A stretch of 64,000 bases of DNA from an uncultured bacterium (lineage in GTDB: Bacteria > Zixibacteria > MSB-5A5 > CAIYYT01), in contig CAVSCK010000005.1 of NCBI GenBank assembly GCA_963726455.1, forward strand, positions 64,973-128,972, read 5' to 3'. Shown piece by piece: positions 28,365 through 47,856 of the stretch. The notes below the pieces were generated by a model that saw only the letters and a list, made by a program, of their open reading frames with translations, was not told where the DNA came from and did no database searches. The translations under genes and the position numbers were made by a program. Every line of letters begins with the position of its first letter. Within the stretch, counting starts at the first letter, position 1.

Positions 28365-28382
28365 TGTTAGGATTTTGTTAGG
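28365..28382 (-). promoter_or_regulatory. Pho-box-like tandem direct repeat upstream of pstS
   Basis: On the minus strand CCTAACA-AAAT-CCTAACA: two 7-mers at 11-bp periodicity, about 40 nt upstream of the pstS ATG. Confidence 0.5.
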
Positions 28383-28423
28383 AATCAGTAAGATGTCGAC
28401 AAAGCGCGAATTTGGGGCAAGGA

Positions 28424-29800
28424 TTACTTCGATGGCAGATGGATTGTGAACGTGCTTCCCTGCCCCACTTTACTGTCTACGCTCAGCGTTCCGTTGTGTG
28501 CGATCACAATATGCTTTGATATCGCCAATCCGAGCCCGGTGCCGCCTTCGGCACGGCTGCGAGATTTGTCGACGCGGTAAAATCTTTCAAACAATCGCGT
28601 CAGATGTTCCGGTGCAATGCCACAACCCTGATCGCGGACGGCGATAGTTACGGAACTCTCGCCGCGTGCAGCGGCGACATCTATCCTTTTCCCCGGCTCA
28701 CTGTATTTCACCGCGTTATCAATCAGATTAATGACCGCCTGTTCAAGCAGCGGTTGATTTGCGCGCACGCGGAGATCTTCGGGACAGGACAAGGTAACGG
28801 AAATGTGCTTAGCGCTCGTGAGTGAATCACAGGCGGTAATGGCTGCCGCCAGAATGCTCCTTAGCCCGACCGGCTGCAGTACGATCTGGCCCCGTTCGGC
28901 ATCCTGTTCGATTCGTGACAGCCTGAGTAAGTCTTCGATTATGTTCTGCAACCGTGCCGCCTGCTTGCCGATGATTTCAAGAAACCGGCGCGACTCCACA
29001 GGGTTCTCCAGCGAACTGTCAAGCAAGGTCTCAATGTAGCCCTTGATCGAAGTGATCGGGGTTTTCAATTCGTGAGACACATTAGCGACAAATTCACGCC
29101 GCAGGTTTTCGAGTTTGCGTATGCGAGTGACATCATTGAGTACGATCAGTGCGCCGAGCCGTGCGCCAGAATTACTTCGCATGGCTGTGCCCGTCACCTG
29201 CAAGTATCGCTCGTCTCTGCCTGCCAGAATTATGTCTCCTTCTGCTGCCACATCCAGCGTCAGTGCCCGGCCTACCAATTTCTGTAGTTCGGCATGACGC
29301 ACCGTATCCTGAAGAGTGCGTCCGACGGTTGCCTTGAGATCGACATCGAACATCCGCGCAGCCGACTGATTGATGCTGACGATCTTTTCATCCGCGTCGA
29401 CAACCAGAACGCCTTCGATCATGTTCGCGGTGATCGTGTGGTATTCCTGGCTCTGCTGCGACAACACTCCGGAACGCGCGGCGAGCTGCTCAGCGATGCT
29501 ACTTAGCGAGTCCGCTACTTCATCCAGTTCCGAAATGCCCGAGTGCAAAGAGTAGGTGTCGTATTCGCCGTTGGCGATGTGTTTTGTCTTCTGCTTTAGC
29601 TGCGTTAACGAGCGCGATAGCCGGCGTGACACGATGATGCCGGTTACAATCGCGGTTGCCAGAACCAGGCAGAGAATGGTGACGAGCACGCTCAGTGAGA
29701 CGGGCGCGGATACTGCGACAATTACCGTTGCCGCTATCACGACCAGTGCGATCAGCAGAAACGGCCGCATAAATCGCCAGAACGTTCGATCGTGGAGCAT
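28424..29800 (-). CDS. phoR: phosphate regulon sensor histidine kinase
   Basis: 458 aa; two N-terminal TM helices, PAS-like region, HisKA H-box (VSHELKTPITSI) and HATPase_c domain; directly downstream of phoB. Confidence 0.85.
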   Translation of the reverse strand: MLHDRTFWRFMRPFLLIALVVIAATVIVAVSAPVSLSVLVTILCLVLATAIVTGIIVSRRLSRSLTQLKQKTKHIANGEYDTYSLHSGISELDEVADSLSSIAEQLAARSGVLSQQSQEYHTITANMIEGVLVVDADEKIVSINQSAARMFDVDLKATVGRTLQDTVRHAELQKLVGRALTLDVAAEGDIILAGRDERYLQVTGTAMRSNSGARLGALIVLNDVTRIRKLENLRREFVANVSHELKTPITSIKGYIETLLDSSLENPVESRRFLEIIGKQAARLQNIIEDLLRLSRIEQDAERGQIVLQPVGLRSILAAAITACDSLTSAKHISVTLSCPEDLRVRANQPLLEQAVINLIDNAVKYSEPGKRIDVAAARGESSVTIAVRDQGCGIAPEHLTRLFERFYRVDKSRSRAEGGTGLGLAISKHIVIAHNGTLSVDSKVGQGSTFTIHLPSK

Positions 29801-29802
29801 GG

Positions 29803-30489
29803 CTATTCCTTGAGCTTGTAGCCGACACCGCGGACGGTCTCGATAACCGCGCCCTGGATTCCCAGTTTGCGGCGCAAACCCACAATCTGCACGTCGACCG
29901 CGCGGTCGGTTACGATGGTCTCTTCACCATGGATTTCGTTGACGATTTGATAGCGGCTGAATACCCAGCCGGGATGGCGAGCGAGCAAATGCAGTATCTC
30001 AAATTCGGTCAGCGTCAACTCGACCGGTCTGCCCGCCAGCGTAACCTGATGACGTCCCGGATCAATCACTATGTCGTGGACTCTCAGCGTGGCGCCGTCC
30101 TTAACGTCCTTGCCTCCCTTGCGACGCAGGGCCGCGCGCACGCGCGCAATCAGGACTTTCGGGCTGAACGGCTTGGTGATGTAATCGTCCGCGCCAACTT
30201 CCAGGCCGGTGATGACATCGCTTTCTTCGCTCTTGGCGGTCAGCATGATTATCGGTATACGCTGAGTCTTCGAATCATTCTTGAGAATCTTGCAGACATC
30301 GAGGCCGTCGATTCCCGGCAGCATCAAATCGAGAATGATGAGATCAGGCAGATTATTGCGCGCTGCCTTCAAGGCCGCCTCACCGGTCGCGGCGCCGGCC
30401 ACACGATATCCCTCCTTGCCGAGGTTGAATTTGATAAGTTCGAGAATGTCTTCTTCATCCTCGACTACCAGAATCATTTCCTTAGCCAT
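29803..30489 (-). CDS. phoB: phosphate regulon response regulator (OmpR/PhoB family)
   Basis: Receiver domain (DLIILDLMLPGIDG) plus winged-helix output domain. Confidence 0.9.
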   Translation of the reverse strand: MAKEMILVVEDEEDILELIKFNLGKEGYRVAGAATGEAALKAARNNLPDLIILDLMLPGIDGLDVCKILKNDSKTQRIPIIMLTAKSEESDVITGLEVGADDYITKPFSPKVLIARVRAALRRKGGKDVKDGATLRVHDIVIDPGRHQVTLAGRPVELTLTEFEILHLLARHPGWVFSRYQIVNEIHGEETIVTDRAVDVQIVGLRRKLGIQGAVIETVRGVGYKLKE

Positions 30490-30659: not shown

Positions 30660-31715
30660 TTAGCAAATGCGCGGCAATTGCTCGCCGGAAAGCATATCAA
30701 CGATGCGGGTGGAACCGATCGCATTGGTCATCGTAACAAGGCCGGATTGATCCGCAGTCGTACTTCCGATGATGGCTGCGGCCGCGCTGACAGACTGAGA
30801 ACGCAGGGCCGACAGAGCGCGTTCAGCATCGCGCTCCGGCACAAACGCAACAAAGCGTCCTTCGTTGGCAACGTAGAGTGGATCGAGCCCGAGCAGCTCG
30901 CAAGCACTTCGTACCGGTTCACTGATCGTAATTGACTGCTCCTGAATGTGCACTCCGAGCTTGGCCGATTGCGCGATTTCATTCAGGGAGCTCGCCAGGC
31001 CGCCGCGGGTGAGATCGCGCAGACAGTGTACTGCAATTCCCGCAGCCAGAAGCGCCTGCACCGCATTGTGCAAAGGTGCACAATCGCTGGTGATTGTTGT
31101 CTCAAACTTCAGCCCCTCCCTCTGCGCCATGATCGCGATTCCATGCCGGCCTATGTCGCCGGAGAGAATTATGGCATCTCCCGCGCACACAGTTGCTGGA
31201 GCTATGCTCAGAGAATGTTCAATGATGCCGATTCCGGCTGTGTTGGTATAGATGCCGTCGCCTTTGCCGCGATCAACAACCTTGGTGTCACCGGTAACGA
31301 CCTGCACGTTTGACTCAGCAGCGCTGGCTTTGATGGACTGCATGACACGTTCAAGAGTCTCCACCGGCAGGCCTTCCTCTAGGATCAGCCCCAGACTCAG
31401 GTAAAGTGGTTTCGCGCCGGCCATCGCCAGATCATTGATCGTACCGTTGACCGCCAGTGTGCCGATATCACCGCCCGGGAAGAACAGCGGACTTACGACA
31501 TACGAATCCGTCGTGAATGCCAGCCGTTGCCCGCCGATTTCAAACACGCTCGCGTCATGGCACGATTGCAGCATCTTGTTGTCCAACGCGGGAAGAATGA
31601 CGTTGTCAAGCAACTGATGCATCAATCTGCCACCACCACCATGTGCCAGTAATATCTGTTCATAATTCGATAACGGCGTCGGGCACGAAAGTAATATGTT
31701 ATTATCATCCGGCAT
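30660..31715 (-). CDS. hypE: hydrogenase expression/formation protein HypE
   Basis: ATG 31715; AIR-synthase-like fold, conserved C-terminal ...PRIC. Confidence 0.9.
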
Positions 31716-31726
31716 GATGTGTCTGC

Positions 31727-32836
31727 CTAACCTTTCGTCTTGTTCTGAACCGTGATACCACGGTAACGGTAATAGGCAGCACAGGCGCCCTCGGAGGACA
31801 CCATAGTAGCACCGAGCGGATGTTCCGGCGTGCATTTGCTGCCGAACACGGGACAGTCATGCGGCTTCTTGATTCCTTGCAGGATTACGCCACTGATACA
31901 ATCTTTCGATTCCTCGACTTTGCGATCGGTCAATTTGAACCTGGTTTCGGCATCGTAGGCGCGGTATTCGCCACGCAATGCCAGGCCGCTGTTGCCGATC
32001 TCACCGATGCCCCGCCACTTGCGCGGGACGATTTCAAACACCTCTTTCAGCAACTTCTGCGCGGGAACATTGCCCTCGCGAGTCACCAAGCGACTGTATT
32101 GATTCTCCACTTCGCAACTTCCGGCTTCAAGTTGAGTGACGCACATCAGGATGCCCTGCAAGATATCGATTGGCTCGAAACCGGTGACGACAATTGGCAC
32201 GCGATACTTCATGGCAATCGGCTCGTACTCATGATAACCCATCACGGTACACACGTGCCCGGCGGCGAGAAATCCCTGCACTTGATTATTCGGCGATCCG
32301 AGTATCGCCTCGATTGCAGGCGGAACCAGAACTTGCGACACCAGAAGCGAGAAATTCTTCACGTTTCGTTGCTGCGCTTGCACGACTGTCATACCAATTG
32401 CGGGAGCGGTCGTTTCAAAACCGACGGCAAAGAAGACTACTTGTCTCTCCGGATTCTTTGTCGCTAACTCAAGCGCATCCAGCGGTGAATACACGACGCG
32501 CACGTCAGCACCCGCTGCCTTGACACTGAGCAAGTCACACCGTGATCCCGGTACGCGCAGCATATCTCCAAACGAACACAAGATCACTTCGGGCTGCGCC
32601 GCAATCTCAATCGCCTTGTCGATCAATTCAATGGGCGTCACACAGACCGGACAACCGGGTCCGTGAACAAGAGTAATCTGTGGCGGCAGTAATTCGTCAA
32701 TTCCGAAACGGACAATCGCGTGCGTCTGCCCGCCACATATTTCCATGATCGTCCAGGGTTTGGTGACGACGGCGGCGATTTGATCGGCCAATTTATGCGC
32801 TGAGGCGGCATCGCGATATTCATCAACGAATTTCAC
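31727..32836 (-). CDS. hypD: hydrogenase formation protein HypD
   Basis: 369 aa; motifs GPGCPVC and CTVMGY; C-terminal Cys cluster. Confidence 0.9.
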
Positions 32837-33087
32837 TGTGACTCCTCGCTGCGGGCGTCGGCTTCATCCATTTCTCGCAGATATTGAAACACTTTCTGCG
32901 CTTCGTCCTCGTCAATGATATTGAGCGCGAATCCGACATGGATCACCACGTAATCGCCAATCTTTACCTCCGGGACGTAACACAGATTCACATCTTTGAT
33001 CACGCCGCCGAAATCCACCCTGCCTGTCCGAAACACGGGATCATCGCCCGTAATGCTGATCACTTTTCCCGGAACTGCGAGACACAT
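32833..33087 (-). CDS. hypC: hydrogenase assembly chaperone HypC
   Basis: Starts MCLAVPGKV (conserved Cys2), ~84 aa. Confidence 0.85.
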
Positions 33088-33092
33088 TTGCG

Positions 33093-35420
33093 TTAATTCC
33101 TTCTTGTTGTTCGCGCTGCGGCCACAATCTGACCCAGTGCGATGCCGCCGTCGTTGGGTGGAATCCGCTGATGCCAATAGGGCTGGAATCCTTCGGCGCG
33201 CAGTCGTGCAATAACATGCTCAGTCAGATACCTGTTTTGAAAACTACCGCCGCTAATCACAATTCTCTGCTGCCCGAATTCTCTCGCTACCGCAATCATC
33301 ATTTCGACCAGTGCGTTGTGAAACTTCGCGGCAGGGACCGACACCGGTGTGCCGTTGTCCCTCTCGGCAAGAACGCTCTCGACGAGCGGTTGCCAGTCCA
33401 CAATGAATGTAGTCTCGTTCTTGACAATTTCAAACGGATAGGATTCATCCGTTTGCGCGTCACCGATTGCGAATTCCAGCGCCATTGCCGCCTCGCCCTC
33501 GAACGTAGCTCGTTGACAAAGTCCAAGCAAAGACGCAACGGCATCAAACAGTCGCCCGGCGCTTGATGTCAGAGGTGCGTTGAGTTGCCGGCTGAGCATA
33601 CCCCGCATTACCGAAAGTTCGGAACTGTTGAATACTATCGTCTTCAGGAGATCGCCCCTGTCGAACATCCGTTCTCCGTACAATTCAAACAACACTCCCA
33701 GCGCCGACCGGCGCGGTTCACGGATTGCGGAATCTCCGCCCGGCAATGGAAACGTTCTCAAATGTGCTACTCGCCTAAAATTCGTGTCGTTGATCTGCAG
33801 AAATTCTCCACCCCAGATTGACCCATCCGGGCCGAGACCGGTGCCATCCCAGGCGATACCCAACACCGGTGCTTCGACTTCATTGTCCGCCATGCAACTC
33901 AAGATATGTGCGTATTGATGCTGTACGGTTAGGACAGGAACCACATATTCGTGTGCCTTGCGAGTCGAGAGATAATCGGGGTGAAGATCACACGCGACAA
34001 CTTCGGGCGTGACGTCATATAAAGCAGGCAAATCTGTGAGCACATTAACGAAAGCCTCATAGGCCTCTGCCGTTTCCAAGTCTCCGATATGTTGGCTGAC
34101 GAAAACGTCCCGCCCCAGCGACAACGCCACGCTGTTCTTAAGCTGTGCTCCGACTGCGATGGCTGACGGCAAGGAATGACTCAGCGTTATCGGCAGTGGC
34201 GCGTACCCACGGGCGCGACGGGTAACCTGCTCGCGGCCTGCCACGATTCGCACGATTGAATCATCGACATGACGCCTGATCGGCCGGTCGTGCACCAGAA
34301 ACGAATCGGCAATCTCTGCAAGCCGACGCAGCGCCTCGAATTCGTCGGTGCATATTGGTTCTTCCGCCAAATTGGCGCTGGTTGCTACGACCGGAAATCC
34401 AAGCTCTTGCATCAACAAGTGGTGCAGTGGTGTGTAAGGCAGCATGACGCCCAGGTATGGATTGCCGGGTGCAACATCGGGGTCGACCAGAGCAGCGCCG
34501 CGTAGTCTGCGTAACAAAACGATCGGCGACTCAACTGAGGTCAGCGAACATTGTTCAATCGCGCTCAGTTCACATGCTTCTTCTACCGATTCCAGTGTCG
34601 GAAACATCAGGGCGAACGGTTTGGCGCTGCGATGCTTTCGTTCGCGCAGCCGCATTATCGCGTCGCGATTGCGCGCGTCGACCATCAAATGAAATCCGCC
34701 GAGGCCTTTAACCGCGACAATATCGCCCGCCTTGATAGCATCTGCGGCCGCCAGCAGTGCTTCATCCTTGCGTGCCTGAACTGCACCGCCACCGTCCCAC
34801 CATTCCAGTTGCGGGCCGCAGTCGGGACAGGCATTCGGTTGTGCATGGAAACGCCGGTCCGAAGGATTCTCGTACTCTTCCCGGCAGAGCTGACACATGA
34901 CGAACTTCTTCATCGTCGTGTTGGCCCGGTCATACGGCAGCGACTCAATAATCGTGTATCTCGGCCCGCAGTTGGTACAATTCGTGAACGGATAGCGAAA
35001 GCGGCGGTTGCTCGGATCACGAATATCGCCGAGGCAGTCGGGGCACGTGGCAATATCCGGCAAGACATAGGCCGACTTACCGCCAGTCGCCACGCTGGCG
35101 CGGATTTCGAAAACTGAATAACCAACGGGATCGAGTTGCGACACTTCGCAACTCTGCACAAAGGCGCGTGGCGGTAACTCCGATATCAGACGCTTGCGAA
35201 ACATATCCAGCGCTTCTTGTGACGCCTCGATTTCGATAATCACTCCCTGCGAAGTGTTGGTGACGTAACCCCGCAATTCCAGATCCTGCGCCAGCCGATA
35301 TACGAACGGCCGAAATCCGACGCCCTGCACGGCGCCACGAATAGCAAATCGCAGCCGCTGCTGCTCATACTTCGGTATTGACTGTGCGGATTTCGGAATC
35401 ATACTGTTCATGCGCGGCAA
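33093..35420 (-). CDS. hypF: carbamoyltransferase HypF
   Basis: 775 aa; acylphosphatase domain, two CxxC zinc fingers, YrdC and Kae1-like domains. Confidence 0.95.
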   Translation of the reverse strand: MPRMNSMIPKSAQSIPKYEQQRLRFAIRGAVQGVGFRPFVYRLAQDLELRGYVTNTSQGVIIEIEASQEALDMFRKRLISELPPRAFVQSCEVSQLDPVGYSVFEIRASVATGGKSAYVLPDIATCPDCLGDIRDPSNRRFRYPFTNCTNCGPRYTIIESLPYDRANTTMKKFVMCQLCREEYENPSDRRFHAQPNACPDCGPQLEWWDGGGAVQARKDEALLAAADAIKAGDIVAVKGLGGFHLMVDARNRDAIMRLRERKHRSAKPFALMFPTLESVEEACELSAIEQCSLTSVESPIVLLRRLRGAALVDPDVAPGNPYLGVMLPYTPLHHLLMQELGFPVVATSANLAEEPICTDEFEALRRLAEIADSFLVHDRPIRRHVDDSIVRIVAGREQVTRRARGYAPLPITLSHSLPSAIAVGAQLKNSVALSLGRDVFVSQHIGDLETAEAYEAFVNVLTDLPALYDVTPEVVACDLHPDYLSTRKAHEYVVPVLTVQHQYAHILSCMADNEVEAPVLGIAWDGTGLGPDGSIWGGEFLQINDTNFRRVAHLRTFPLPGGDSAIREPRRSALGVLFELYGERMFDRGDLLKTIVFNSSELSVMRGMLSRQLNAPLTSSAGRLFDAVASLLGLCQRATFEGEAAMALEFAIGDAQTDESYPFEIVKNETTFIVDWQPLVESVLAERDNGTPVSVPAAKFHNALVEMMIAVAREFGQQRIVISGGSFQNRYLTEHVIARLRAEGFQPYWHQRIPPNDGGIALGQIVAAARTTRRN

Positions 35421-35438: not shown

Positions 35439-35945
35439 TTAGACCGTCTCTGTGAACGCCATCTCGTTGAGATCGTTCATAACCCGCGCGACCACGTCGT
35501 TGACCGCACTCACCACCGATTGCGTCAGTCCGTTGCCTGCGGAAAAATCGGCCCCCTCGATACCGTAAACCACCAACCGTTCCGGCAATCGCCCGAGTGC
35601 GCGCGCCAACTCCACGGCCTCAGCGACACTGAAGGCATGCGTGGAGTAATTGAAGAAATCGCTCGGAATTGGAACCCGGGCGGCATCAAATCGATAGATG
35701 AGTCCCGGCGTTGACGACGATTGTGCTGCGTCTATGATGATAACTGTATCTGCTTCGCCAAAACGCTCCAACAGTGACACGCCCTCACCTGAATGGACGA
35801 CGGCGTTTACGCGCGGCAGTGTCAGCGCCGCGATTCGGTTCGCAACCGCAATACCGGCAGCGTCATCGTGTCGGAACTCGTTGCCGACCCCAATTACCAA
35901 AGCAGTGTTGCGCCGGACGGTCGAGTCGTCATCAGTCGCCGCCAT
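35439..35945 (-). CDS. hydrogenase maturation endopeptidase
   Basis: 168 aa; LVIGVGNEFRHDDAAG motif. Confidence 0.8.
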   Translation of the reverse strand: MAATDDDSTVRRNTALVIGVGNEFRHDDAAGIAVANRIAALTLPRVNAVVHSGEGVSLLERFGEADTVIIIDAAQSSSTPGLIYRFDAARVPIPSDFFNYSTHAFSVAEAVELARALGRLPERLVVYGIEGADFSAGNGLTQSVVSAVNDVVARVMNDLNEMAFTETV

Positions 35946-35951
35946 TTTGCA

Positions 35952-37244
35952 TCACCGCCTGTCGATCTTCAGTTTCAGGAAATGTGTCGCGCAGGAAATG
36001 CACGGATCATAGTTGCGCACCGCCTGCTCGCATTGCCAGGTCAGATTCTCGTCCGACAGATGGATATGCCGTGGCACGAATTCCGCCAGATCATTCTCGA
36101 TTGTCTTTTGGTTCTGCGATGTCGGCGGCACGATCTTGGCCTCGGTTATCTTGCCTTTTTCGTCGACACGATACCGATGATAGCAGATACCGCGGGGTGC
36201 TTCCGAGCAGCCGCATCCGACCCCGGCGCGTTTCTTAAATTCGACTGCCGGTTTCTCCGGCTTCTCATAATTTGCGATAATTCGTAATGCCTCATCACAG
36301 GCATAGACCGTCTCAATGCTGCGCACGATTATGCCTTTGAAGGGATTGCGACAGCTATTGCCCAGGCCGACCTCTCTGGCGACCTGCTGCGGCACCGGCG
36401 ACAGTCGGTCGAAATTGAGATTGAAGCGCGCCAACGGCCCCACGAAGTAAGCGCCACGCGCTCTGATTACGGAGTGTAGAGCGTGAGAATGCTTGACGTG
36501 CTCCTCCGCAAAATGCTGCTCGTACTCCTTGATCTCGATATCCAGCCCGCGATTCGACACCAGTCGTCCTTCGATGAGTGGATACTCATCCGGATGCCGC
36601 ATGGCGACGAATTCGTAGTCACGCTCAAAATCCGGAAACTTGAAGGTCGCCACCCATTTTGACGTTTCGATTGCGGCATCGCGAGCCCATTTGAGTTCCT
36701 CCGCGATCGAAGCCAATTGCGACTTTTCCGGCGCCTTGTAGAATCCGCCGACGCGCACGTTGATCGGATGAATTTCGCGTCCGCCAATCAGCGTCATAAG
36801 ATCATTCCCGCATTTCTTGAGGCGCAGACCCCGCTTGACGATGTCGGGATAATCCTTCGCCAGTTGAATGGCGTCGGGATAGCCAAGGAAATCAGGCGCG
36901 TGCAGCATGTAGATATGCAGCGCGTGGCTTTCGATCCACTCGCCGCAGTATATTAGGCGCCGCAGCGCGCGTAGTTGTCCATCGACCGTGACACCGAATA
37001 TCTGTTCCATCGCGCTCACCGCGCTCATTTGATAGGCAATCGGGCAGATTCCGCAGATGCGTGCGGCAATGTCGGGCGCTTCGGCATAATGACGGCCACG
37101 CATAAATGCCTCGAAGAAACGCGGCGGTTCGAAAATCTTCAGTTTCACGTCTTCCACGCGGTCGTCTTTGATCTTCACATAGAGCGATCCTTCGCCTTCG
37201 ACTCGCGCCAGATAATCGACCTTGATCGTTCTGCTATCTTTCAT
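35952..37244 (-). CDS. hydA: [NiFe]-hydrogenase large (alpha) subunit, group 3b-like
   Basis: N-terminal RICGICP and C-terminal DPCISCATH nickel-binding motifs; 430 aa. Confidence 0.93.
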
Positions 37245-38013
37245 GAGCTTCGCTCTCTTTCCGGAAGGTCTCCGAATAGGAGTTGTAACTCCGATACAGC
37301 CGCACGAGATAATCTTCGTTGACGCCGATTTTGCTGAATTGCTCGCTCATCGACATGGTATTCGGGGTCTCTTTCGGTCCGAAACAACCGTAGCAGCCAC
37401 GGCTGAATGACGGGCAGATGGCGCCGCAACCGGCCTGCGTCACCGGTCCCATGCAGGGTTTCCCCTGCGCCACCATCACACAAGGCGTGCCTTTCAATTT
37501 GCATTGCAGGCAGACGGAATGCGGCGGCGTGTTCGGCTTGCGGCCGTTGAGGAAAGCGCTGAGCACTTCCACCAACTGCGCTTTGTTGATCGGGCAGCCA
37601 CGCAATTCGAAATCGACCAGCACGTGGTAGCCGATCGGAGTTGACTTGTGCAGCGTCTCGATGTACTGCGGCGACGCATAGACGTAATTCGCGTAATCCA
37701 TGACGTTCGCAAAATTGCGAAGCCCCTGAATTCCTCCCGCCGTGGCACAGGCGCCAATCGTGATTAAGAGCTTTGACATCTTGCGCACTTTCTGAATGCG
37801 CTCGGCATCGTGCGAGGTCGTGATCGAGCCTTCGACCAGCGATATATCGTAGGGTCCCTTGACCAAAGCGCGCGTCGCCTCCGGGAAATTGGCGATCTCC
37901 ACCGCATCGGCGATGGCCAGTAGCTCATTTTCGCAATCGAGCAGACTCAGTTGACAGCCGTCACAAGACGCAAATTTCCAGACTGCCACTTTCGGTTTGG
38001 TTTTGGTTGCCAT
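37234..38013 (-). CDS. hydD: [NiFe]-hydrogenase small (delta) subunit
   Basis: ATG 38013; FASCDGCQ and C-terminal Cys clusters of the FeS-carrying small subunit. Confidence 0.88.
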
Positions 38014-38014
38014 A

Positions 38015-38884
38015 TCAGATTTCCCGCCTTCCCAGCAATTCAATTACCTTATCGTAACTGAACACCGGCCCGTCCTTGCAGACGAAGGTCGGCCCGAACT
38101 GGCAATGTCCACACAGCCCGACGCCACACTTCATATTTCGCTCCATCGATACGTAGATTCGTTCCAGCCCGAGGTCCTGCTTGATCAAACCCATCGCCAC
38201 GAAGCGCATCATGATTTCCGGGCCGCAAATCATCGCCGTGGTGTTTTCGGGATCGAAAGCCGCCTTCCTGAGCAGTGAGGTCACGACGCCGACATTGCCC
38301 CGCCAGCCGCTCGATGCGCGGTCGACGGTGACGTGTACTTCCAGGTCAAAGCGGGAGCGCCACTTTTCCAGTTCCGTGACATAGAGCATGTCATCCGGCG
38401 TTCTGGTGCCGTACAGCAGGAAAACCCGGTTGTATTTTTTGCGCTCGGCCAGAACCTGATAGACTACCGGCCGCAAAGGCGCCAGTCCAATACCGCCCGC
38501 GATTATCAGTACATCCCCACCGGCTGCCTGTGTCACCGGCCAGGCGGCGCCAAAGGGACCGCGCACGCCGATGGTGTCACCGGCCTTTAGCTTCGCCATC
38601 GCTTTAGTGACCGAACCGACGGCACGGATTGTATGAATCAAGGTTGCCGGCTTGGTCGGATCGCCGCTGATCGAGATTGCCGCTTCGCCAACGCCGAACT
38701 TGTATAGCATATTGAATTGCCCCGCGACGAATTTATGTTCTGCCGTTCCGTCAACGGGTTTGAGTTCCAGAGTGAACGTATCGTGTGTCTCTTTGCGATA
38801 CTTTTCGATGCGATACGTCCTCGGCAGCATCGAGTTGCTGCGGCCTGCCGGTGTTGAGGCCTTAGTTTCAAGCACGGGTTCCAT
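38015..38884 (-). CDS. hydG: hydrogenase gamma subunit (FAD/NAD-binding with C-terminal 2Fe-2S)
   Basis: Ferredoxin-reductase-like fold; C-terminal [10 protein letters not shown]. Confidence 0.8.
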
Positions 38885-39329
38885 ATATGTCCAACAATTG
38901 AAGTCTGGTTGCCGACAGGCGCTCGGCGATAATCTTCACGAAGCGCTTGAGTAACTCATATCCGAGGTCATGGTCTTCATCCAGCTTGCTGCGCAGGCAC
39001 AAGGCATCGAATCGAATTGCACGTGTGAGTTCCACCGCCCGCGCGTCGAAGTGCGCCCGATACGGAGGTAGCAGCCACGACCAGCCGGTGACGTCGCCGT
39101 CCTCCAAAGTTTCGACGGTTATCGGACCGTGCGTAGGGCTGAATAGCTCCAGCGCGACTTTGCCTTGACGAATGATGTAAAATTCGGATGCTTCCTGACC
39201 TTCGCGGGAAATAAACTCGCCGGCATCAAACTTGACATTCGAGGCGCAGCCCAGGAGCAAATGCAATTGCTCATGGGGCAAGCCCTTAAAGAACGGATGT
39301 GCCGCCAGTATCGGTTCCAATGTCTCCAT
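38868..39329 (-). CDS. cyclic nucleotide-binding domain protein (stand-alone, no HTH)
   Basis: 153 aa; cNMP-binding beta-roll (FISREGQEASEFYIIRQGKV); sits between the beta and gamma subunit genes and overlaps the gamma start. Confidence 0.75.
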   Translation of the reverse strand: METLEPILAAHPFFKGLPHEQLHLLLGCASNVKFDAGEFISREGQEASEFYIIRQGKVALELFSPTHGPITVETLEDGDVTGWSWLLPPYRAHFDARAVELTRAIRFDALCLRSKLDEDHDLGYELLKRFVKIIAERLSATRLQLLDIYGTRA

Positions 39330-39330
39330 C

Positions 39331-40530
39331 CTAATGCTCCTTTATTGCCATTGTCGCTTTTTCTCGCTTGTCGCTCGCCCGGATCGCCCGCGCTTCCTCC
39401 GTGATATCGATACCAACCGGGCACCAGGTAATACACCGACCGCAACCGACGCATCCCGACATGCCGAACTGATCCTGCCACGCCGCCAGCTTATGCGTCA
39501 TCCACTGCCGATACCGCGCCCTGGTGGAGGTCCTGATGCTGCCACCGTGTATGTAAGAGAAGTCCAGCGTGAAGCAAGAGTCCCATCGCCTGATGCGTTC
39601 TGCAGTTGTTCCAGCCAGATCGGTGATGTCATTGACCGTCATGCAGAAACAGGTCGGGCAGACCATTGTACAATTGCAGCAGGTAAGACAACGCGCCGCA
39701 ACATTGTCCCAGCGCGGATGTTCGATATTGCGATACAGCAATTCGTAGATACCGTTCGTGTCCAGTTGGCGTCCCATGTTCTCGGACGACTTCTTCATGA
39801 GTTCAAACACGGTCTGCTTTTCTTCGGCGGTAGCGATTTGATTACTGACTTTGCTGATCACCGCGGCGCCTTTGTCGCTTCCCGATTCCACCACAAAATA
39901 GTGACGGGCCTTATCGACAACTTCCGTTAGCGCCAGGTCAAATCCCGAGGAAACTCTCGGACCGGTCCTCATCGAAACGCAAAAACAGGTTCCCCGCGTC
40001 ACGGTGCAGTTGACGGCCACGATGAATACTTTCTCACGGCGGGCTCGGTAAACCGGATCGGCGTGTTCTCCCTGCATAAAGATCTTGTCCTGCGTCGCGA
40101 TGGCATTTAACTCGCATGAACGCACGCCGATAAAGGCGTACTTGGGAGTTTCCTCTTTCTCTTCAATGATGGTCACTTGCCGATTTTCCAGATTCGCCTT
40201 CCACAAACGCAGAGTCGGTGGAAACAGGAACTTCTTCCATGATTGCGGACCGACTACATAGCCAAAGAATGCCGAATCCTTACGCTGAATCAGACGATAG
40301 TATCCGCCGTCCTGCTCGTCAGTCCACCCGATCGGAAGGTCGTCGGTTGAGTTCAACTCGTCATACACGATCGCTTCATCGCGAACGGTCGGCCCCATCA
40401 ACCGGTAGCCCTGCTCCTGCAGCACTGTGAACAGCGTTTGCAGTTGTTCACGTTGCAACGTAACTTGCTGATCAGTCTCTACTGCCGATTCCAACATTTG
40501 ATTATCTTCCTTCGTGAAGTTAGTCCCCAA
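39331..40530 (-). CDS. hydB: hydrogenase beta subunit (4Fe-4S protein, AsrA-like)
   Basis: 399 aa; Cys clusters [16 protein letters not shown] and [12 protein letters not shown]. Confidence 0.8.
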
Positions 40531-40735
40531 TGATTTCCCCCGCAGCGTTCATCAATTCTGAATTCAGCCGACTAATGATAACGACTGGACTTCCTAATAT
40601 CACTGAATTGCAGACAGCGATCATCAACTATTCACCACTTGTCCGATCCGCGCCGTTCCTGCCAACCATTCTGGCCGGCAGGCGGATCGTCGCGAATCAC
40701 TTTTCCGCATTGAAAATAGCTTAGTTTGGGCCAAA

Positions 40736-40775
40736 TGTCACGGGGAAAAAGTGACAGATTGTGAAAAAAATCGCA
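40736..40775 (-). promoter_or_regulatory. paired inverted repeats upstream of the hydrogenase operon (candidate CRP/FNR-type operator)
   Basis: TGTCAC-N9-GTGACA at 40736-40756 followed immediately by TGTGA-N6-TCGCA at 40760-40775 (one mismatch to TGTGA-N6-TCACA); about 200-240 nt upstream of the first hydrogenase gene. Confidence 0.4.
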
Positions 40776-40911
40776 ATCTCTGCACGCAATGCGTTGCGCC
40801 ACAACATATTCTGCATTAAAGAAATAACTATAATGTGGCAAACCGAGGAAGGCAAGTGAGACTTCCAAAGCCATAATGTCTATCGGGAGGAATTTAGTTG
40901 TCCAGTGTTAA

Positions 40912-40954
40912 TGCTGCAAATGAAAACGGACGAACATTGCTTGTCCGTCCGTTT
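40912..40954 (-). terminator. rho-independent terminator downstream of the cytochrome gene
   Basis: AACGGACGAACA / TGTCCGTCCGTT stem (one mismatch); on the minus strand followed by TTTTCATTTG. Confidence 0.55.
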
Positions 40955-40998
40955 AGAAATCTAATCTACGCACCACCAAGCGCTTCGTTAAGCCGTCG

Positions 40999-42546
40999 TC
41001 ACGGCTGCACGCCCGTGTGACACTCGGAGCAATTCATTTCCTTCCAGGCATCGCTGATGTCAACCGGATGCGAAAACTCCAGACCGGCCTCGGTAGTTGC
41101 GACCTGCAAACTGTCGGGCCTTCCCTGCAGCAAGATGGCATGACACGAATTGCATTCACGCGTCACGATCAAACCATCCGAGCTTTTGTGCTTGCCGTCG
41201 TGGCAACGGAAACATCCCTTGTTAATGAAATGCCCAATGTTGTTCGGATACACTGCCCAGCGAGCTTTCATCGTCGGGAAAATATTCTTCGAATACGCTT
41301 CCTGTGCGGCCGCAATCGCCTTATCGATGTTTGCTTCATTCGCCGAGAAGTATGCCGCATCCCGCGCTTTATAGAAATCGTTGATCGTGCTGGCGATTCC
41401 GGCATAAGCGTCATCCTTGGTGTCGTATTCCTTCGCAATCGCTTCGACCGCAATTTTCTTGATCTCCGGCAGCTTCCGATCGATTCGTTCTTCCAGCAGC
41501 ATTTCGTCGATGGCATAATCCGGGGAATTAAAGATATGGCTCGGGCGGTTGTGGCAATCTACGCAGTCCATTCTCCGCTTGACGGCTTTGTTGATTTCAT
41601 CCTCAGTGAGCGGAGTCTCGGTATCCTGATAGACTGTCACTCGCTTGGTCCGCTTGTCGGTGATTCTCACCCAGGGAATATCCTGCCGCTTTTCGTCGCG
41701 CGGGATGTACTCGATGTCGACGCCGACATTCATATGCCAGTGAATTCCTGCGGTGTATCCCGGTTTGGGATCGCTGCCGCCGACCTTGACCAGCATATTG
41801 ATCGTCCAGGGCGTGCTCGTTTCGTCGTATTGGTACTGTTTGAATTCACGCTGCTGGGAACCGAATCTTTTCTCGGGCCAATGGCAGCGCTCGCACGTTT
41901 CCTGGGCCGGGCGCAGGTTGGTGATCGGCGTCGGAATCGGCCGCGGATATTTGTTCGCGACAACGGCGTAAACCTGATAAGCGCCCGACAATTTCGATTT
42001 GGCGTACCAACTGGCGCCATACCCGACATGGCACTCGGCGCACGACACCCGCGCATGCGGCGACTGCTGATAGGCCGTGTGTTCCGGTTCCATGACGGAG
42101 TGACAGGTCAGCCCGCAGAAGGCCACCGACTCCGTGTAATGATAGGCCTGATAACTTCCCACCGCGCTGATAACCAGAATCAACACTGTTCCCGACAAAA
42201 AGATGATCGTAGCGTTGCGGTGTCCGGTGCGGTTAAGATCCACCAGCGGCCACTTGGGAATCTCCTGCTCGCCGGTCTTCCGCCAACGCCGCCATTGCCG
42301 GTACATTCCTACCGGAATCAAAAACAATCCAAACACAAACCCGGCGGGTAATACCATGTAAACGAATATTCCGAGGTAGGTGTTCGGCTCCTCGGCGCCG
42401 GCGCTGATAATGAGCAGTACGACAATCGCCAGACCCACGATAACTGCGATGGTAGCGCCCAGGGCGCTCGTCCAGTTCTGAGTGAGGCGCGGTAGTTTAG
42501 GTCTTTCCATAGCTAATTCATTCTCTCCAAAAAATGCACCGACCAT
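40999..42546 (-). CDS. membrane-anchored multihaem c-type cytochrome (seven CxxCH motifs)
   Basis: Two N-terminal TM helices; haem sites CGLTCH, CAECH, CERCH, CVDCH, CFRCH, CNSCH, CSECH; alternative ATG at 42510. Confidence 0.85.
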   Translation of the reverse strand: MVGAFFGENELAMERPKLPRLTQNWTSALGATIAVIVGLAIVVLLIISAGAEEPNTYLGIFVYMVLPAGFVFGLFLIPVGMYRQWRRWRKTGEQEIPKWPLVDLNRTGHRNATIIFLSGTVLILVISAVGSYQAYHYTESVAFCGLTCHSVMEPEHTAYQQSPHARVSCAECHVGYGASWYAKSKLSGAYQVYAVVANKYPRPIPTPITNLRPAQETCERCHWPEKRFGSQQREFKQYQYDETSTPWTINMLVKVGGSDPKPGYTAGIHWHMNVGVDIEYIPRDEKRQDIPWVRITDKRTKRVTVYQDTETPLTEDEINKAVKRRMDCVDCHNRPSHIFNSPDYAIDEMLLEERIDRKLPEIKKIAVEAIAKEYDTKDDAYAGIASTINDFYKARDAAYFSANEANIDKAIAAAQEAYSKNIFPTMKARWAVYPNNIGHFINKGCFRCHDGKHKSSDGLIVTRECNSCHAILLQGRPDSLQVATTEAGLEFSHPVDISDAWKEMNCSECHTGVQP

Positions 42547-42733: not shown

Positions 42734-43723
42734 ATGAGAAGAGCTGTATTGATCGCGCTTGCCATCGTTTCGTTGTCGTTCATCTCATTTCTGACATCGC
42801 CGCAACCCGCCACTGCCGCCGCGATTGTCGCCGATCACACGACGGTCGCGAAGTTCGCGCAGATTCCGCAGGAATATTTCGACCAGATTCGCGCCAATTA
42901 CCGGTTCTTCTATGGCCACACATCTCACGGCAGCCAGATATTGACCGGAATCGGCATGTTGGCGTACGAGTATCCGCTGCAATGCGGCTCGCCGTCATTC
43001 TTCGAGTACGGCGACGATCTTGGCGCCGCCGGAGACATTACCTGGGTGCAGCCGACGCGCGATTTTCTCAATTCCAACCCGGATTACAATGTCGTGATGT
43101 GGTCATGGTGCGGCGGCGTATCCGACAATACTGAGGCCGGTATTAACAGTTATCTCAACGCGATGGAGCAACTCGAAAACGAATTTCCGAATGTCCGATT
43201 CGTATACATGACCGGCCATCTCGACGGCACCGGCGCCGCAGGAAACCTGTATGCGCGGAACAATCAGATTCGCCAGTGGTGTGCCGCAAACGGGAAAGTG
43301 CTTTTCGATTTTGCCGACATCGAGAGCTACGATCCGGATGGCGCGTATTACCCCGACGGCAGCGACGCCTGCGAATGGTGCTATACTTGGTGCGCTACCC
43401 ACACCTGCACTGACTGCGGAGGAAGTTGCGCGCATTCGCATTGTTTCAATTGCTATCAGAAGGCCAAGGCGTGGTGGTGGATTATGGCGCGTGTCGCCGG
43501 CTGGAACACGGATCCGGTTGGCTGCGGAGACGCCAACTCGGACGGTGGCATTGATATCAGTGACGCGGTATTCCTGATTGCCTACATCTTTTCAGGCGGC
43601 CCGGCGCCAAATCCGCTCAATTATGGCGATGCCAACTGCGACGCAGCCATTGACATCTCCGACGCGGTCTACCTGATAAGCTACATCTTCGCCGGCGGCC
43701 CTGCCCCTTGTGCAAGTTGCTAG
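42734..43723 (+). CDS. secreted protein with Cys-rich N-terminal domain of unknown function and C-terminal dockerin-like tandem module
   Basis: Signal peptide; Cys-rich stretch CEWCYTWCATHTCTDCGGSCAHSHCFNCY; C-terminus [27 protein letters not shown]...[32 protein letters not shown]. Confidence 0.6.
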   Translation: MRRAVLIALAIVSLSFISFLTSPQPATAAAIVADHTTVAKFAQIPQEYFDQIRANYRFFYGHTSHGSQILTGIGMLAYEYPLQCGSPSFFEYGDDLGAAGDITWVQPTRDFLNSNPDYNVVMWSWCGGVSDNTEAGINSYLNAMEQLENEFPNVRFVYMTGHLDGTGAAGNLYARNNQIRQWCAANGKVLFDFADIESYDPDGAYYPDGSDACEWCYTWCATHTCTDCGGSCAHSHCFNCYQKAKAWWWIMARVAGWNTDPVGCGDANSDGGIDISDAVFLIAYIFSGGPAPNPLNYGDANCDAAIDISDAVYLISYIFAGGPAPCASC

Positions 43724-43816: not shown

Positions 43817-44251
43817 TCATTTCGCCGTCTGCAACCGGCAGTAGGCAAAGAGCGCGTCGTATACAATCGATTCCTCCGCCAGCACTTCATGGTCGTCATT
43901 TAGTCCCAGATGCCGGAAACCCTCAGCTATCGCACCCAGTCCGGCGGCCTCGGCACGGCCATAGAGATCATTTTCGCAATCGGCGCCATGAACTATCTGT
44001 GCCAGCAATTTGATCGCCGGATCTTCTATCCCGTATTTGCTCACAATGGCTTCGAAACTGCACTTACCGTCGTGATGTCCCAGCTCGGCGCCGGCAACAT
44101 CAAACGGGATAGCGTGCTCTCGCGCCGCTGTTTCCTGAACCATGTCTTTCGGCACGAATAGAAATTCTGCATGCGGATCGACGAATTTCCTGATCAACCA
44201 CGGGCATGCCACACGGTCAACCTTTACGTGTTCACGGGTCACCCATTTCAT
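43817..44251 (-). CDS. small cytoplasmic protein, possibly chromate-resistance (ChrB-domain) family
   Basis: N-terminus MKWVTREHVKVDRVACPWLIRKFVDP resembles the Chrome_Resist family; recalled from memory, low certainty. Confidence 0.35.
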   Translation of the reverse strand: MKWVTREHVKVDRVACPWLIRKFVDPHAEFLFVPKDMVQETAAREHAIPFDVAGAELGHHDGKCSFEAIVSKYGIEDPAIKLLAQIVHGADCENDLYGRAEAAGLGAIAEGFRHLGLNDDHEVLAEESIVYDALFAYCRLQTAK

Positions 44252-44294
44252 ACAACACCTCCGACCAATGACGGTCGCCTATTTGATGATGCTA

Positions 44295-45503
44295 TTACGA
44301 AGCGACTTCTTTGCCGCGTAACGCAAACCAGATCGTGCCTATGATTCCGAAGGCAAATGCGGTCAGCAAGTTTGTTTTCGGGCTGATCATCCAGAGTGCC
44401 GCCCCACCGAATGCCGCCAGCGCCACAATCGTATCGCGAATCAGATAATATAGCCCGAACATCCCGGCCTCGCGTCCGGCCGGGGCCAGATCCATAATCA
44501 TCGCCTTGCGCGTCGGTTCGCCAAATTCCTTGAGGCCGCGCAATATGAACGCGATTACCAATGGCCAGAACGAATGGCAGAAGAGCAGCACCAACGGGAA
44601 CAGCGTAAAGTTCACGAAGGTAATGACGACAAAGGGCTTCTTCTGAGTCTTGTCCGCAAAGTAGGCAACCGGAATGTAGACGAGCACCGCGGTGACCATT
44701 TCCACAGTGGTGAGAATTCCAAATTGCACGCCGTCAACCGGAGCTGCAATTACCTTCATGCACCACACAACCACAAAGGCATAAGGAATCTGCTCGCAAA
44801 AACGAATTAGAATATCGGACACCAGCAGGTTTCGCAGCGGCTGGCTCATTTCCTTGAACAACTTCAAAGGATTGGCAATTGCCTTCTTCTGACTTTCGAC
44901 AACATGCTGCCGATCGTCATCGATCATGAACTGTTGAACGATCGCGGCAATTATCGCCATCGCCAGCGCCGTCAGAAACGCCAACCGCACGCCGGTGCGC
45001 ACACCCCACTGATCGATGAAGAACCCACCGCACAACGGCCCCAGCGCCATTGGAATTCGCCGAATGAGGGAGTGCATCGTCACTCCCATCGTGCGTTTGG
45101 CTTTCGGCAAGACTCGCGCTACGAGACCCATGGTGGCTGGCAGTGATATCGCCGACCAGGTCAGAAAGAAAAATGCGCCGGCGATTACTGCCCATACCGT
45201 GGGAACCAGTATCACCAGCACGTAGCCGGCCATTGCCAGAAGATTGAAGGCCAGCAGCGACCGTTTGACGCCAAACCGATCCGAGAGATAGCCCCCGCCG
45301 AAAGAATAGACAGCTCCAACCTGGTTCTGCAACCAGCCAAGCAGTCCGATGGCAAGATCGCCTCCACCCAGGGCCAGCAAATAGATGGGCAGAAATCGTT
45401 CTGCCATCCGCTCGCCCATCCCGACGAGAATCACCATACCCATTAAGGCGACGATACTTCGCCTTAACCCAAAGAACTCGATGAACCGCCGGAAGAAGGT
45501 CAT
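44295..45503 (-). CDS. MFS transporter
   Basis: 402 aa, about 12 TM helices, MFS-type loop motif between TM2 and TM3. Confidence 0.85.
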   Translation of the reverse strand: MTFFRRFIEFFGLRRSIVALMGMVILVGMGERMAERFLPIYLLALGGGDLAIGLLGWLQNQVGAVYSFGGGYLSDRFGVKRSLLAFNLLAMAGYVLVILVPTVWAVIAGAFFFLTWSAISLPATMGLVARVLPKAKRTMGVTMHSLIRRIPMALGPLCGGFFIDQWGVRTGVRLAFLTALAMAIIAAIVQQFMIDDDRQHVVESQKKAIANPLKLFKEMSQPLRNLLVSDILIRFCEQIPYAFVVVWCMKVIAAPVDGVQFGILTTVEMVTAVLVYIPVAYFADKTQKKPFVVITFVNFTLFPLVLLFCHSFWPLVIAFILRGLKEFGEPTRKAMIMDLAPAGREAGMFGLYYLIRDTIVALAAFGGAALWMISPKTNLLTAFAFGIIGTIWFALRGKEVAS

Positions 45504-46026: not shown

Positions 46027-47856
46027 TTACACCGGCGGGCAGGCAGCGCATGGCACCGGTCCCCCGCCAAATATGTATTGAATAAGGTACACCGCGTCCG
46101 CGATGTCGATCGACTTGTCACAGTTGGGATCCCCGGCTGTGGCTGTGACCGGCGCCGGTCCCCCCGCAAAAATGTAATTTATGAGGTAGACCACGTCGGC
46201 GATATCGACTCCACCGTCACCGTTGGCGTCGCCGCAAGTGAATTCAACCAGAGTAGTCCCCCACCAAGTGCCCCAGCGCGTGTCAGCAGGGTTCGGTCCA
46301 ACCGGTGTCGCCGCATATTCCTGAATCGTCCAGAAGCTGGTGCTATCCTTGGGGTCTACGACTGTGGCACTAAAATCCCCCCAGCGAACCTCAGTTCCGC
46401 CGAAGGTCTTGGTATAGATGCCCTCGCCGGCCTTGATCGTTGCCACGGTGCTCGTCGTCCCGATTGGATCGGTTGACCTGCGGCCGGTGTAAGCCGCTTC
46501 GACAAAGATGTTGGGATTCGAATGCGAGAACCCGAGAAAGACATCATTCCCGGAATTGACTGCAATACTGGGAAAGAACAGAAAGTCATTCGTGCCCATA
46601 TCAACCACGCCCGATTGCACAATCGGATTCGGTAGCGTCGCCGGATCGAGTTCATACCAGAAGACGGAAACGTGGTTGGGAGAATTCACCGGCAGGCCTG
46701 CACTGTGCGTGCACCAAATCCTGCCGTTACGGAAGACGGCATTGAGCATACGCGAATCGTTGGTTGACACCAGTGTGGCTGTGCCCTGTTGCTTGGCGTC
46801 TGGCTGATTATTCGAGAAATTATGTGCTACCGAGAATAACCCCGAGCCGCCAATCGTCGAACCAGGCACAGCGGCCCAAACCGGCGCCGGTCCCGTACCG
46901 GTGATTTGTGTCAATCTGAGGAGAGCTACTCCTCCCGAGGTGAATCCGGCATTATCGACCAGATATAGTGTCGGCTCATTACCGAATGTCTGACAGACGC
47001 GAAGCGCGAAACCTGAACCGACATTGCCGAAATTGTCTGATCCCACCGGAAAACTCGTGAAGGTCAACGGTCCCCCGGCAAGCGCCGTCGATTTTTCAAT
47101 TACCCACATCGACGTTCCGGAGAAAGTATTCCCCGTCACTTTGAACATGTTGGCCGTAATGGCAATCCAGGTTCCATTATACCCGATGTCCGGATAATCA
47201 GCCCAGCTAATGTGCGAGGTGTCCGCAGGTATGCGGTAGAATTTCCAGGTCCCCATCGGATTGGCGCTGTCGCTGACCGCCATCACCACAGCGGAATTCA
47301 CGGTTTGGAAGTCCGCGATGGACGACGCATACCAACGGTTGACGCTCGGGTCGTACAGAACGTGGGGATCACTAACATTGGTCGAACCCGTTGGCGACCA
47401 GAATGTCGGATAGGAGATTGTACTCAGGATATTCCCAAACTTGTCCTGCACCCTGATTTGTGAATTCAGCATCGTCATCACCCGGTTCAGACTTACGGCG
47501 CCGTGCGAATCCGGAGGGATCACGTGAAGGTTATCGGGCAAGGCCTGGAAATTTCTGACTACCGGCGGCACCTGCATCGGCGAAAGAAATTGCTCTGTCC
47601 CCAGACTCCCTGCACTACCCAACTTACCCAGTGGCCCACCAACCTCTCTCGGCGCCGGCATCAGCAATAGCGGTTTTACTTCCTGCACCTCCGCGGTCTT
47701 TGCCAGCGGTGCCCTCGCCTCCATGTTCTCCAAGTCCTGCCAGCTCACCTGAGCTACCGGATCAATCTGCATTTGTTGTCCGGAGACGCCAAAACTTGCC
47801 GCAGTCAGCAACAGTATTAGAACGAGCGTCGCCCGCGACGTTTGCCATATCGACAT
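46027..47856 (-). CDS. secreted protein of unknown function (paralog of 48164-50620) with C-terminal dockerin-like tandem module
   Basis: ATG 47856 with AAGGAG upstream; signal peptide; ~500-aa N-terminal domain shared with the next gene (...RWGDFSATVVDP...WGTWWGTT); C-terminus CGDANGDGGVDIADVVYLINYIFAGG...[32 protein letters not shown]. Confidence 0.6.
   Translation of the reverse strand: MSIWQTSRATLVLILLLTAASFGVSGQQMQIDPVAQVSWQDLENMEARAPLAKTAEVQEVKPLLLMPAPREVGGPLGKLGSAGSLGTEQFLSPMQVPPVVRNFQALPDNLHVIPPDSHGAVSLNRVMTMLNSQIRVQDKFGNILSTISYPTFWSPTGSTNVSDPHVLYDPSVNRWYASSIADFQTVNSAVVMAVSDSANPMGTWKFYRIPADTSHISWADYPDIGYNGTWIAITANMFKVTGNTFSGTSMWVIEKSTALAGGPLTFTSFPVGSDNFGNVGSGFALRVCQTFGNEPTLYLVDNAGFTSGGVALLRLTQITGTGPAPVWAAVPGSTIGGSGLFSVAHNFSNNQPDAKQQGTATLVSTNDSRMLNAVFRNGRIWCTHSAGLPVNSPNHVSVFWYELDPATLPNPIVQSGVVDMGTNDFLFFPSIAVNSGNDVFLGFSHSNPNIFVEAAYTGRRSTDPIGTTSTVATIKAGEGIYTKTFGGTEVRWGDFSATVVDPKDSTSFWTIQEYAATPVGPNPADTRWGTWWGTTLVEFTCGDANGDGGVDIADVVYLINYIFAGGPAPVTATAGDPNCDKSIDIADAVYLIQYIFGGGPVPCAACPPV

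Follow-up and report, generated by a model that had tools for sequence, protein, structure and literature searches.

A small protein of the cyclic-nucleotide-binding (CNB) fold, encoded between the beta and gamma subunit genes of a group 3b-type [NiFe] hydrogenase operon, was examined in a 64,000-nucleotide stretch of an uncultured Zixibacteria bacterium (contig CAVSCK010000005.1 of assembly GCA_963726455.1), referred to here as the window. With moderate confidence, we read this conserved 153-aa CNB-like protein (38868-39329, minus strand) as an accessory or regulatory subunit of the hydrogenase that probably acts as a dimer and is not a canonical receptor of cyclic nucleotide monophosphates (cNMP). 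Its gene keeps its place between beta and gamma in related operons of many phyla, overlaps its neighbours, evolves at the rate of the structural subunits and occurs as a natural fusion to beta, and the residues that contact cyclic nucleotides have been lost. All coordinates refer to the whole window unless a locus is named.

Conservation and evolution of the CNB gene

A pattern scan seeded with the CNB protein, with one genome per species, gave at least 596 confirmed loci, and 80 of these were kept and their gene order read by tblastn with the window proteins. The order beta, CNB, gamma was present in 74 of the 80, and the remaining six were orphan copies with no hydrogenase gene within 7 kb. 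The loci span Acidobacteriota, Ignavibacteriota, Bacteroidota, Zixibacteria, Chloroflexota, Planctomycetota, Nitrospina, Alphaproteobacteria, Verrucomicrobiia and others. Because a scan seeded in this way is blind to operons that have no CNB gene, a metagenome scan seeded with beta was added. It gave 80 loci, seven of them ending right after beta, and in 71 of the 73 informative loci beta was followed by CNB, the other two (L115 and L163) passing directly from beta to gamma. The arrangement is far beyond chance, since the same order recurs in 74/80 genome loci and 71/73 informative metagenome loci. It is also annotated on plasmids of Burkholderia thailandensis and Rhodococcus qingshengii. The five-gene form is the usual one among the bacterial relatives sampled, and the window is a typical example with nothing unusual about it. 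A full bacterial-type operon, with an alpha subunit 73% identical to that of the window, was also seen in a metagenome-assembled genome (MAG) labelled Candidatus Bathyarchaeia (L030, contig CAZLHM010000029.1), which could reflect mis-binning or lateral transfer.

The junctions of CNB with beta and with gamma were overlapping in most loci. At the beta-CNB junction, stop and start overlap by 14 nt (25 loci), 1 nt (6 loci) and 29 nt (4 loci). Between CNB and gamma, the overlap of the CNB stop with the first candidate gamma start measures 4 nt (19 loci) and 17 nt (14 loci). The window belongs with the latter, since 17 nt of its CNB frame are shared with gamma from the ATG at 38884. At the beta-CNB junction of the window the stop TAG is followed by one base and the CNB ATG, with AAGGAG upstream. 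The CNB gene is supported as a conserved part of the operon that, from its junctions, appears to be translationally coupled, and the protein would be made in step with the enzyme as a conserved accessory component.

Rates of evolution were compared across the window and 45 complete operons. Mean pairwise divergence was lowest for delta (0.30) and alpha (0.35), followed by CNB and beta (0.42 each) and gamma (0.43), and was highest for the protease (0.57). Diverging about as much as beta and gamma, the CNB protein evolves like a structural subunit. Its distance matrix correlated with those of gamma and alpha (r 0.73 with each), matching the correlation of known subunits with one another, and the strongest residual link was to gamma (partial r 0.44 given alpha). 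As shared operon history inflates all such correlations, this mirror-tree pointer to gamma is weak and serves as a hint only.

In one lineage the CNB domain is fused to the C-terminus of beta and a second free copy is kept. The fusion protein of 542 aa joins a complete beta to a CNB domain and was found as two variants that are 97% identical (P0168 and P0271). P0271 was seen once in an ENA metagenome and once in an NCBI assembly, and in both records the next genes are a diverged second copy of CNB, free of beta, and gamma, in that order. In the loci L088 (2924-5393) and L089 (1739-4199) the free CNB gene between the fusion and gamma carries the motif GYCWLIPPYQCRF instead of the GWSWLxPPY of the family. 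The P0271 fusion with its second free gene argues for proximity of the CNB protein to the beta C-terminus and for two CNB domains per enzyme. The wider family also includes tandem CNB-CNB proteins (P0121-P0124, 300-350 aa), and the gene for one of them (P0124, on a JGI contig) stands beside Cus-like RND metal-efflux genes and a heavy-metal P-type ATPase gene, not beside hydrogenase genes.

Several observations weigh against a subunit of this kind. The partner signals disagree, with the mirror-tree pointing to gamma and the natural fusion to beta, and a structure model of the P0168 fusion had a mean pLDDT (per-residue model confidence) of 44.6, with the beta part unfolded (only three beta sequences were in the alignment) and no docking shown. 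Operons without the gene include a Streptomyces locus (L085) as well as the metagenome loci L115 and L163, and neither the Hyh operon of Mycobacterium smegmatis as annotated (PMC2799521) nor the solved four-subunit enzyme of Pyrococcus furiosus has a CNB subunit. Similarity to HoxI of Cupriavidus necator, the regulatory protein taken as a model below, is no higher than similarity to E. coli CRP. Close orphan copies (~60% identical) lie away from hydrogenase genes in Mycobacterium, other Actinomycetota and a Chloroflexota MAG. These orphans keep GWSWLxPPY, so the motif is a property of the family and the idea that it forms a hydrogenase-specific interface is weakened.

The orphan copies have varied surroundings. 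A close alpha was present on 15 plasmid or chromid records, and in three of them, all from Streptomyces, the CNB homologue lies outside the operon, 10-18 kb from alpha (one was checked in detail). In L085 (3778-4176; 12860-17539) the operon has no CNB gene and an orphan copy lies 12 kb away, and in L086 (4234-8839; 19140-19577) a CNB gene within the operon is accompanied by a second, orphan copy 10 kb downstream. Neighbours of the Mycobacterium orphan encode a universal stress protein, a phytochrome-GGDEF protein and a patatin, and those of the Chloroflexota orphan an aquaporin, an aldolase and a 2-oxoacid:ferredoxin oxidoreductase. Actinomycetota orphans in L003 (5862-13480) and L068 (2779-7459) stand amid genes for universal stress proteins, CBS-domain proteins, GAF sensor kinases, response regulators, phytochrome-GGDEF proteins and patatins, a neighbourhood that looks like a hypoxia or stress cluster. 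Judged from these placements, the CNB protein may act in trans or with other partners.

A rather unlikely alternative is that the protein is a transient assembly or maturation factor for the Fe-S and flavin module of beta and gamma, absent from the mature enzyme. Such a factor could act in trans, as the operons that keep a copy 10-18 kb away would allow, and both the existence of orphan copies and an archaeal enzyme that works without a CNB protein would fit it. It is harder to reconcile with a protein whose rate of evolution is as low as that of the structural subunits and far below that of the dedicated protease, with a gene placed between two structural genes and not with the hyp genes, and with a permanent fusion to beta. 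No chaperone-like family was matched in Pfam or NCBIfam.

Fold and altered cassette of the CNB protein

The Pfam scan of the CNB protein returned PF00027 as its sole domain and no helix-turn-helix. Homologues numbered 4839 at E <= 1e-5 and were placed in several phyla by the sources that give names. The best 120 were almost all 151-155 aa in length (a few up to 169 aa) and 64-100% identical to the window protein. An exact look-up of the window protein itself in the contig index gave no entry. An AlphaFold2 model (pLDDT 77) has a CNB barrel followed by a 30-residue C-terminal helix like the C-helix of CRP. In Foldseek its best matches were the effector domain and C-helix of Mycobacterium tuberculosis CRP and GlxR (TM-score ~0.7), and a probability of 1.0 was obtained against the CNB domains of CRP, PKG and HCN, as expected of a protein with the PF00027 fold.

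The phosphate-binding cassette is degenerate and reads GWSWLLPPY in the window protein (residues 82-90). The stretch GWSWLxPPYxWxFDA is the most conserved of the family, with G82 at 98%, W85 at 95% and P89 at 98% among 119 cluster representatives, and the GWSWLxPPY loop is the lowest-confidence part of the model. In an alignment to PKG the Trp after the cassette glycine occupies the position of the conserved Glu. A profile alignment to E. coli CRP placed W83 opposite the ribose-binding Glu72 and showed a 4-residue deletion spanning Gln-Glu-Arg82-Ser83, which includes the phosphate-binding Arg82-Ser83. No conserved Arg was found in the motif loop among the 119 representatives. The cassette therefore holds neither the Gly-Glu nor the Arg-Ser/Thr of a functional cNMP receptor, and with the Glu and Arg-Ser contacts lost the protein is not a canonical cAMP/cGMP receptor. 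It probably does not bind cyclic nucleotides in the known way, and the name "cyclic-nucleotide-binding" is probably misleading for this family.

The initial annotation had proposed that the protein couples hydrogenase activity or assembly to a cyclic-nucleotide signal. A true sensor of cAMP or cGMP is very unlikely given the Trp in place of the conserved Glu (opposite Glu72 of CRP) and a cassette that is 4 residues shorter with the Arg-Ser/Thr pair (Arg82-Ser83) inside the deletion, no invariant Arg having been found in the loop of the 119 representatives, even though the PF00027 match is significant, the best structural matches of the CNB fold are the cAMP-binding CRP and GlxR, and the first two thirds of the protein give a good alignment with PKG CNB domains. 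The loop is the least confident part of the model, and many CRP-family domains bind other ligands. The same annotation had said that a gene not conserved in synteny and lacking nucleotide-binding residues would refute its view; the synteny holds in 74/80 and 71/73 loci and does not refute it, and the residues are missing, which does. A truncated CRP/FNR-type transcription factor regulating the operon at the DNA level is hardly credible. In its favour, JGI names homologues "CRP/FNR family transcriptional regulator" and the fold equals the CRP N-terminal domain. Against it, a helix-turn-helix is lacking, nothing follows the C-helix in the protein, the stop codon falls within gamma, the length is fixed at ~153 aa in thousands of homologues, and the gene overlaps structural genes on both sides.

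A Cys2His2 or Fe-S site made up of H11, C28, C111, C116 and H120 was considered and rejected, as C28 is kept in 76% and C111 in 55% of the 119 representatives, C116 is Leu in the window and no consistent site emerged. At the start of the C-helix (residues 111-120 of the protein encoded at 38868-39329, minus strand) most close homologues have C-x4-C-x3-H (CLRxKCEEDH), and the window protein has Leu at the second Cys.

The CNB protein has the CRP-type effector fold and dimerisation helix, without a DNA-binding domain, and its cassette has been rebuilt as the aromatic GWSWLxPPY loop. A CNB dimer may be attached to the beta-gamma electron-transfer and NAD(P)H module, where it would either stabilise that module or tune activity through a ligand other than cNMP, a pyridine nucleotide being the leading guess. 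The model for this role is HoxI, reported as a dimer loosely bound to the soluble hydrogenase of C. necator; the role could also be purely structural. A broader view is conceivable, if doubtful, in which GWSWLxPPY proteins form a widespread class of CNB-fold small-molecule sensors. In these a redox or energy ligand (NADPH/NADP+, flavin or haem) would control how group 3b hydrogenases make H2 in fermentation, across more than a dozen phyla, and orphan copies would act in trans in hypoxia or stress clusters.

The operon, its enzyme class and its surroundings

The hydrogenase region (40530-30660) consists of ten co-directional genes on the minus strand, preceded by an intergenic region. Some of the longest open reading frames (ORFs) open at an upstream TTG, and for these the likelier ATG start is given.

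40531-40998, minus strand: upstream intergenic region, the presumed promoter region, a 468-nt gap from the NapC/NirT-like cytochrome gene to beta (function inferred)
39331-40530, minus strand: beta, HydB/AsrA-like Fe-S subunit (PF17179 Fer4_22, 115.7 bits)
38868-39329, minus strand: CNB-fold protein, 153 aa, putative accessory subunit (PF00027, 44.2 bits, cutoff 27.5)
38015-38884, minus strand: gamma, AsrB/HydG-like subunit with FAD, NAD(P) and [2Fe-2S] domains (PF00175 and PF10418)
37234-38043, minus strand: delta, [NiFe] small subunit, likely ATG 38013 (PF01058, 80 bits)
35952-37244, minus strand: alpha, [NiFe] large subunit, 430 aa (PF00374)
35439-35945, minus strand: hydrogenase maturation endopeptidase (PF01750; TIGR00072, 111 bits, cutoff 47)
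33093-35420, minus strand: hypF (acylphosphatase, zf-HYPF, Sua5 and Kae1-like domains)
32833-33177, minus strand: hypC, likely ATG 33087, MCLAVPGK... (PF01455, 89.6 bits, the match starting at ORF residue 31)
31727-32836, minus strand: hypD (PF01924, 523.8 bits)
30660-31835, minus strand: hypE, likely ATG 31715 (PF00586 and PF02769)

The longest beta ORF, 399 aa, opens at a TTG, and the likely start is the ATG at 40497 (388 aa), which is preceded by a Shine-Dalgarno-like AAGGAAG. The gamma start was set at ATG 38884 because gamma homologues align from residue 1. A single base lies between the gamma stop and the likely delta ATG, the delta and alpha frames share 11 nt, and the overlap of the hypE ORF with hypD is confined to the upstream extension of the hypE ORF. 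The gene order given by the initial annotation (beta, CNB, gamma, delta, alpha, protease and hypF-C-D-E on one strand with overlapping or abutting boundaries) is borne out by Pfam, NCBIfam and the junction sequence. Its account of a small CNB protein without a DNA-binding domain that overlaps the gamma start and is probably co-translated agrees with the PF00027-only architecture and the 17-nt overlap. It had also placed hypA and hypB outside the window, and when HypA (three queries) and HypB (two queries) of C. necator and B. thailandensis were run against the 64 kb by tblastn, no match was better than E = 0.1, so that both are absent from the window at that sensitivity.

The locus is well supported by sequence comparison as a group 3b-type [NiFe] hydrogenase operon, which upholds the class first assigned. 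For all four structural subunits the top matches were the sulfhydrogenase proteins HydB/G/D/A or ShyB/C/D/A. Against NCBIfam, alpha scored 297 bits with ShyA and 261 with HydA (FrhA 151, VhuA 146), beta 168 with sulfhyd_HydB, 152 with ShyB and 131 with AsrA, gamma 226 with PRK08345, 186 with ShyC and 184 with AsrB, and delta 167.5 with ShyD and 157 with HydD; these subunit scores lie far under the equivalog cutoffs, which marks the window enzyme as a distant bacterial relative. Against solved large subunits in the PDB, alpha scored 240-241 bits with group 3b (Thermococcus kodakarensis and P. furiosus), 192 and 168 with group 3c, 147 with group 3d and 143 with group 3a. It aligned over its full length to 5yxy and 9nez, with RICGIC and DPCISCATH matching both metal-binding Cys motifs, and its C-terminus has a 9-residue extension beyond the His of DPCISCATH for the protease. 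Beta matched the sulfhydrogenase 1 beta chain 9nez_B at E 1.5e-41. An AsrA-like Fe-S beta and an AsrB-like FAD/NAD(P) gamma are encoded together with the small and large subunits, as is characteristic of group 3b. The best explanation is that the enzyme, predicted to be cytosolic and NAD(P)-linked, takes the form beta, CNB-like protein, gamma, delta and alpha, followed by the protease and hypFCDE.

Three sigma-70-like sites with 9/12 matches lie upstream of beta (40855-40827, 40741-40713 and 40603-40575), no more than in shuffled sequences, and Rfam gave no match within or upstream of the operon. An RNA element or terminator within or upstream of the operon was rejected, there being no Rfam match and promoter- and terminator-like sites being no commoner than in shuffles. 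A hairpin followed by a T-rich stretch can be seen by eye at ~40950-40916 and was not called by the terminator scan. Directly upstream of the operon on the same strand, 40999-42546 encodes a 515-aa NapC/NirT-like multihaem cytochrome. Directly downstream of hypE, the region 25606-30489 (minus strand) includes genes for an OmpR/PhoB-type response regulator, a sensor histidine kinase and a PstS-like periplasmic binding protein (all identified by eye) and for an ABC transporter permease (Pfam BPD_transp_1); together they resemble a cluster for phosphate uptake and its regulation. A run of large proteins that end in a dockerin type I domain is encoded at 42734-43723 (plus strand) and at 46027-47991, 48164-50620 and 53811-57035, and also at 51059-53452 (all minus strand), in combination with thrombospondin type 3 repeats, Ig-like domains, FG-GAP repeats and M6 or S8 peptidase domains. 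At 43817-45503 (minus strand) a gene for a protein with a ChrB C-terminal domain adjoins one for an MFS transporter.

Comparison with known hydrogenases

In bacteria of soils and sediments, group 3b enzymes count among the most widespread hydrogenases. They are thought to shed excess reductant as H2 in hypoxia, and they are usually described as four-subunit enzymes after the archaeal model. A fifth gene is nevertheless present in almost every related bacterial group 3b operon sampled and evolves as slowly as beta and gamma. If its product is a true subunit, leaving it out of structural and kinetic studies of the bacterial enzymes of group 3b would miss a regulatory or stabilising part, and the same would apply to heterologous expression for H2-driven NADPH regeneration. 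The arrangement is common but little studied, and the interest attaches to the CNB protein family as a whole and not to the window locus. A full-text literature search for a CNB gene in group 3b clusters gave passing mentions only, one as HoxI and one in a listing, and found no functional study.

The archaeal sulfhydrogenases I and II (HydBGDA and ShyBCDA of P. furiosus) and the cytosolic [NiFe] hydrogenase of T. kodakarensis have four subunits homologous to those of the window enzyme, encoded in the same beta, gamma, delta, alpha order. The P. furiosus enzyme is a heterotetramer and is not known to have a CNB subunit. Among its solved entries the matches here were limited to the alpha and beta chains, and the solved archaeal beta aligns only from its residue 57, to residue 98 of the window beta. 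No structure paper on the enzyme of P. furiosus was found in the literature search.

Among bacteria, Hyh (Hyd3) of M. smegmatis is a physiologically studied group 3b enzyme. It is of the same class and has the same beta, gamma, delta, alpha, protease order (PMC2799521), and its expression is induced by hypoxia and DosR (10.1101/2023.09.11.557286). Unlike the window, the M. smegmatis operon as annotated (MSMEG_3931-3927) is without a CNB gene, whereas Rhodococcus operons do have one (PMC13332983).

The effector domains of the CRP/FNR family (M. tuberculosis CRP, GlxR and DNR) share the beta-barrel and C-helix fold with the CNB protein (TM-score ~0.7), which differs from them in having no DNA-binding domain and a shortened cassette without the Glu and Arg-Ser contacts.

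The nearest parallel in function may be HoxI of the C. necator soluble hydrogenase (group 3d, HoxFUYHI2), likewise a free-standing protein of the CNB fold whose gene lies inside the operon of a cytosolic [NiFe] hydrogenase linked to pyridine nucleotides (167 aa compared to 153 aa in the window). HoxI is described as a regulatory dimer that detaches from the HoxFU diaphorase module at high ionic strength (PMC3189943, PMC12809855), and it has been proposed to bind NADPH (Burgdorf 2005, cited in PMC12319191). A CNB gene of a group 3b cluster has already been labelled "HoxI" (PMC12319191). The loose regulatory dimer reported on the diaphorase is reminiscent of the indirect hints of a dimer in the window family, from the fusion with its second free copy and from the tandem proteins, and of the co-variation of that family with gamma. 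The enzyme class and partner subunits of the two systems differ, as do the gene positions, with hoxI after the protease gene and the window CNB gene between beta and gamma. The HoxI cassette keeps a Gly-Glu and a Ser (GELGF...PHSLS), and the window family does not. BLASTP gave 28% identity over 97 residues, and hhalign of the window CNB family scored 38.4 (probability 81%) with HoxI compared to 40.0 (probability 83%) with E. coli CRP. Orthology to HoxI was rejected, as the similarity is no higher than that to E. coli CRP and the cassette and operon position differ. By analogy, we read the CNB protein of the group 3b operons as one that would resemble HoxI in role without being its orthologue.

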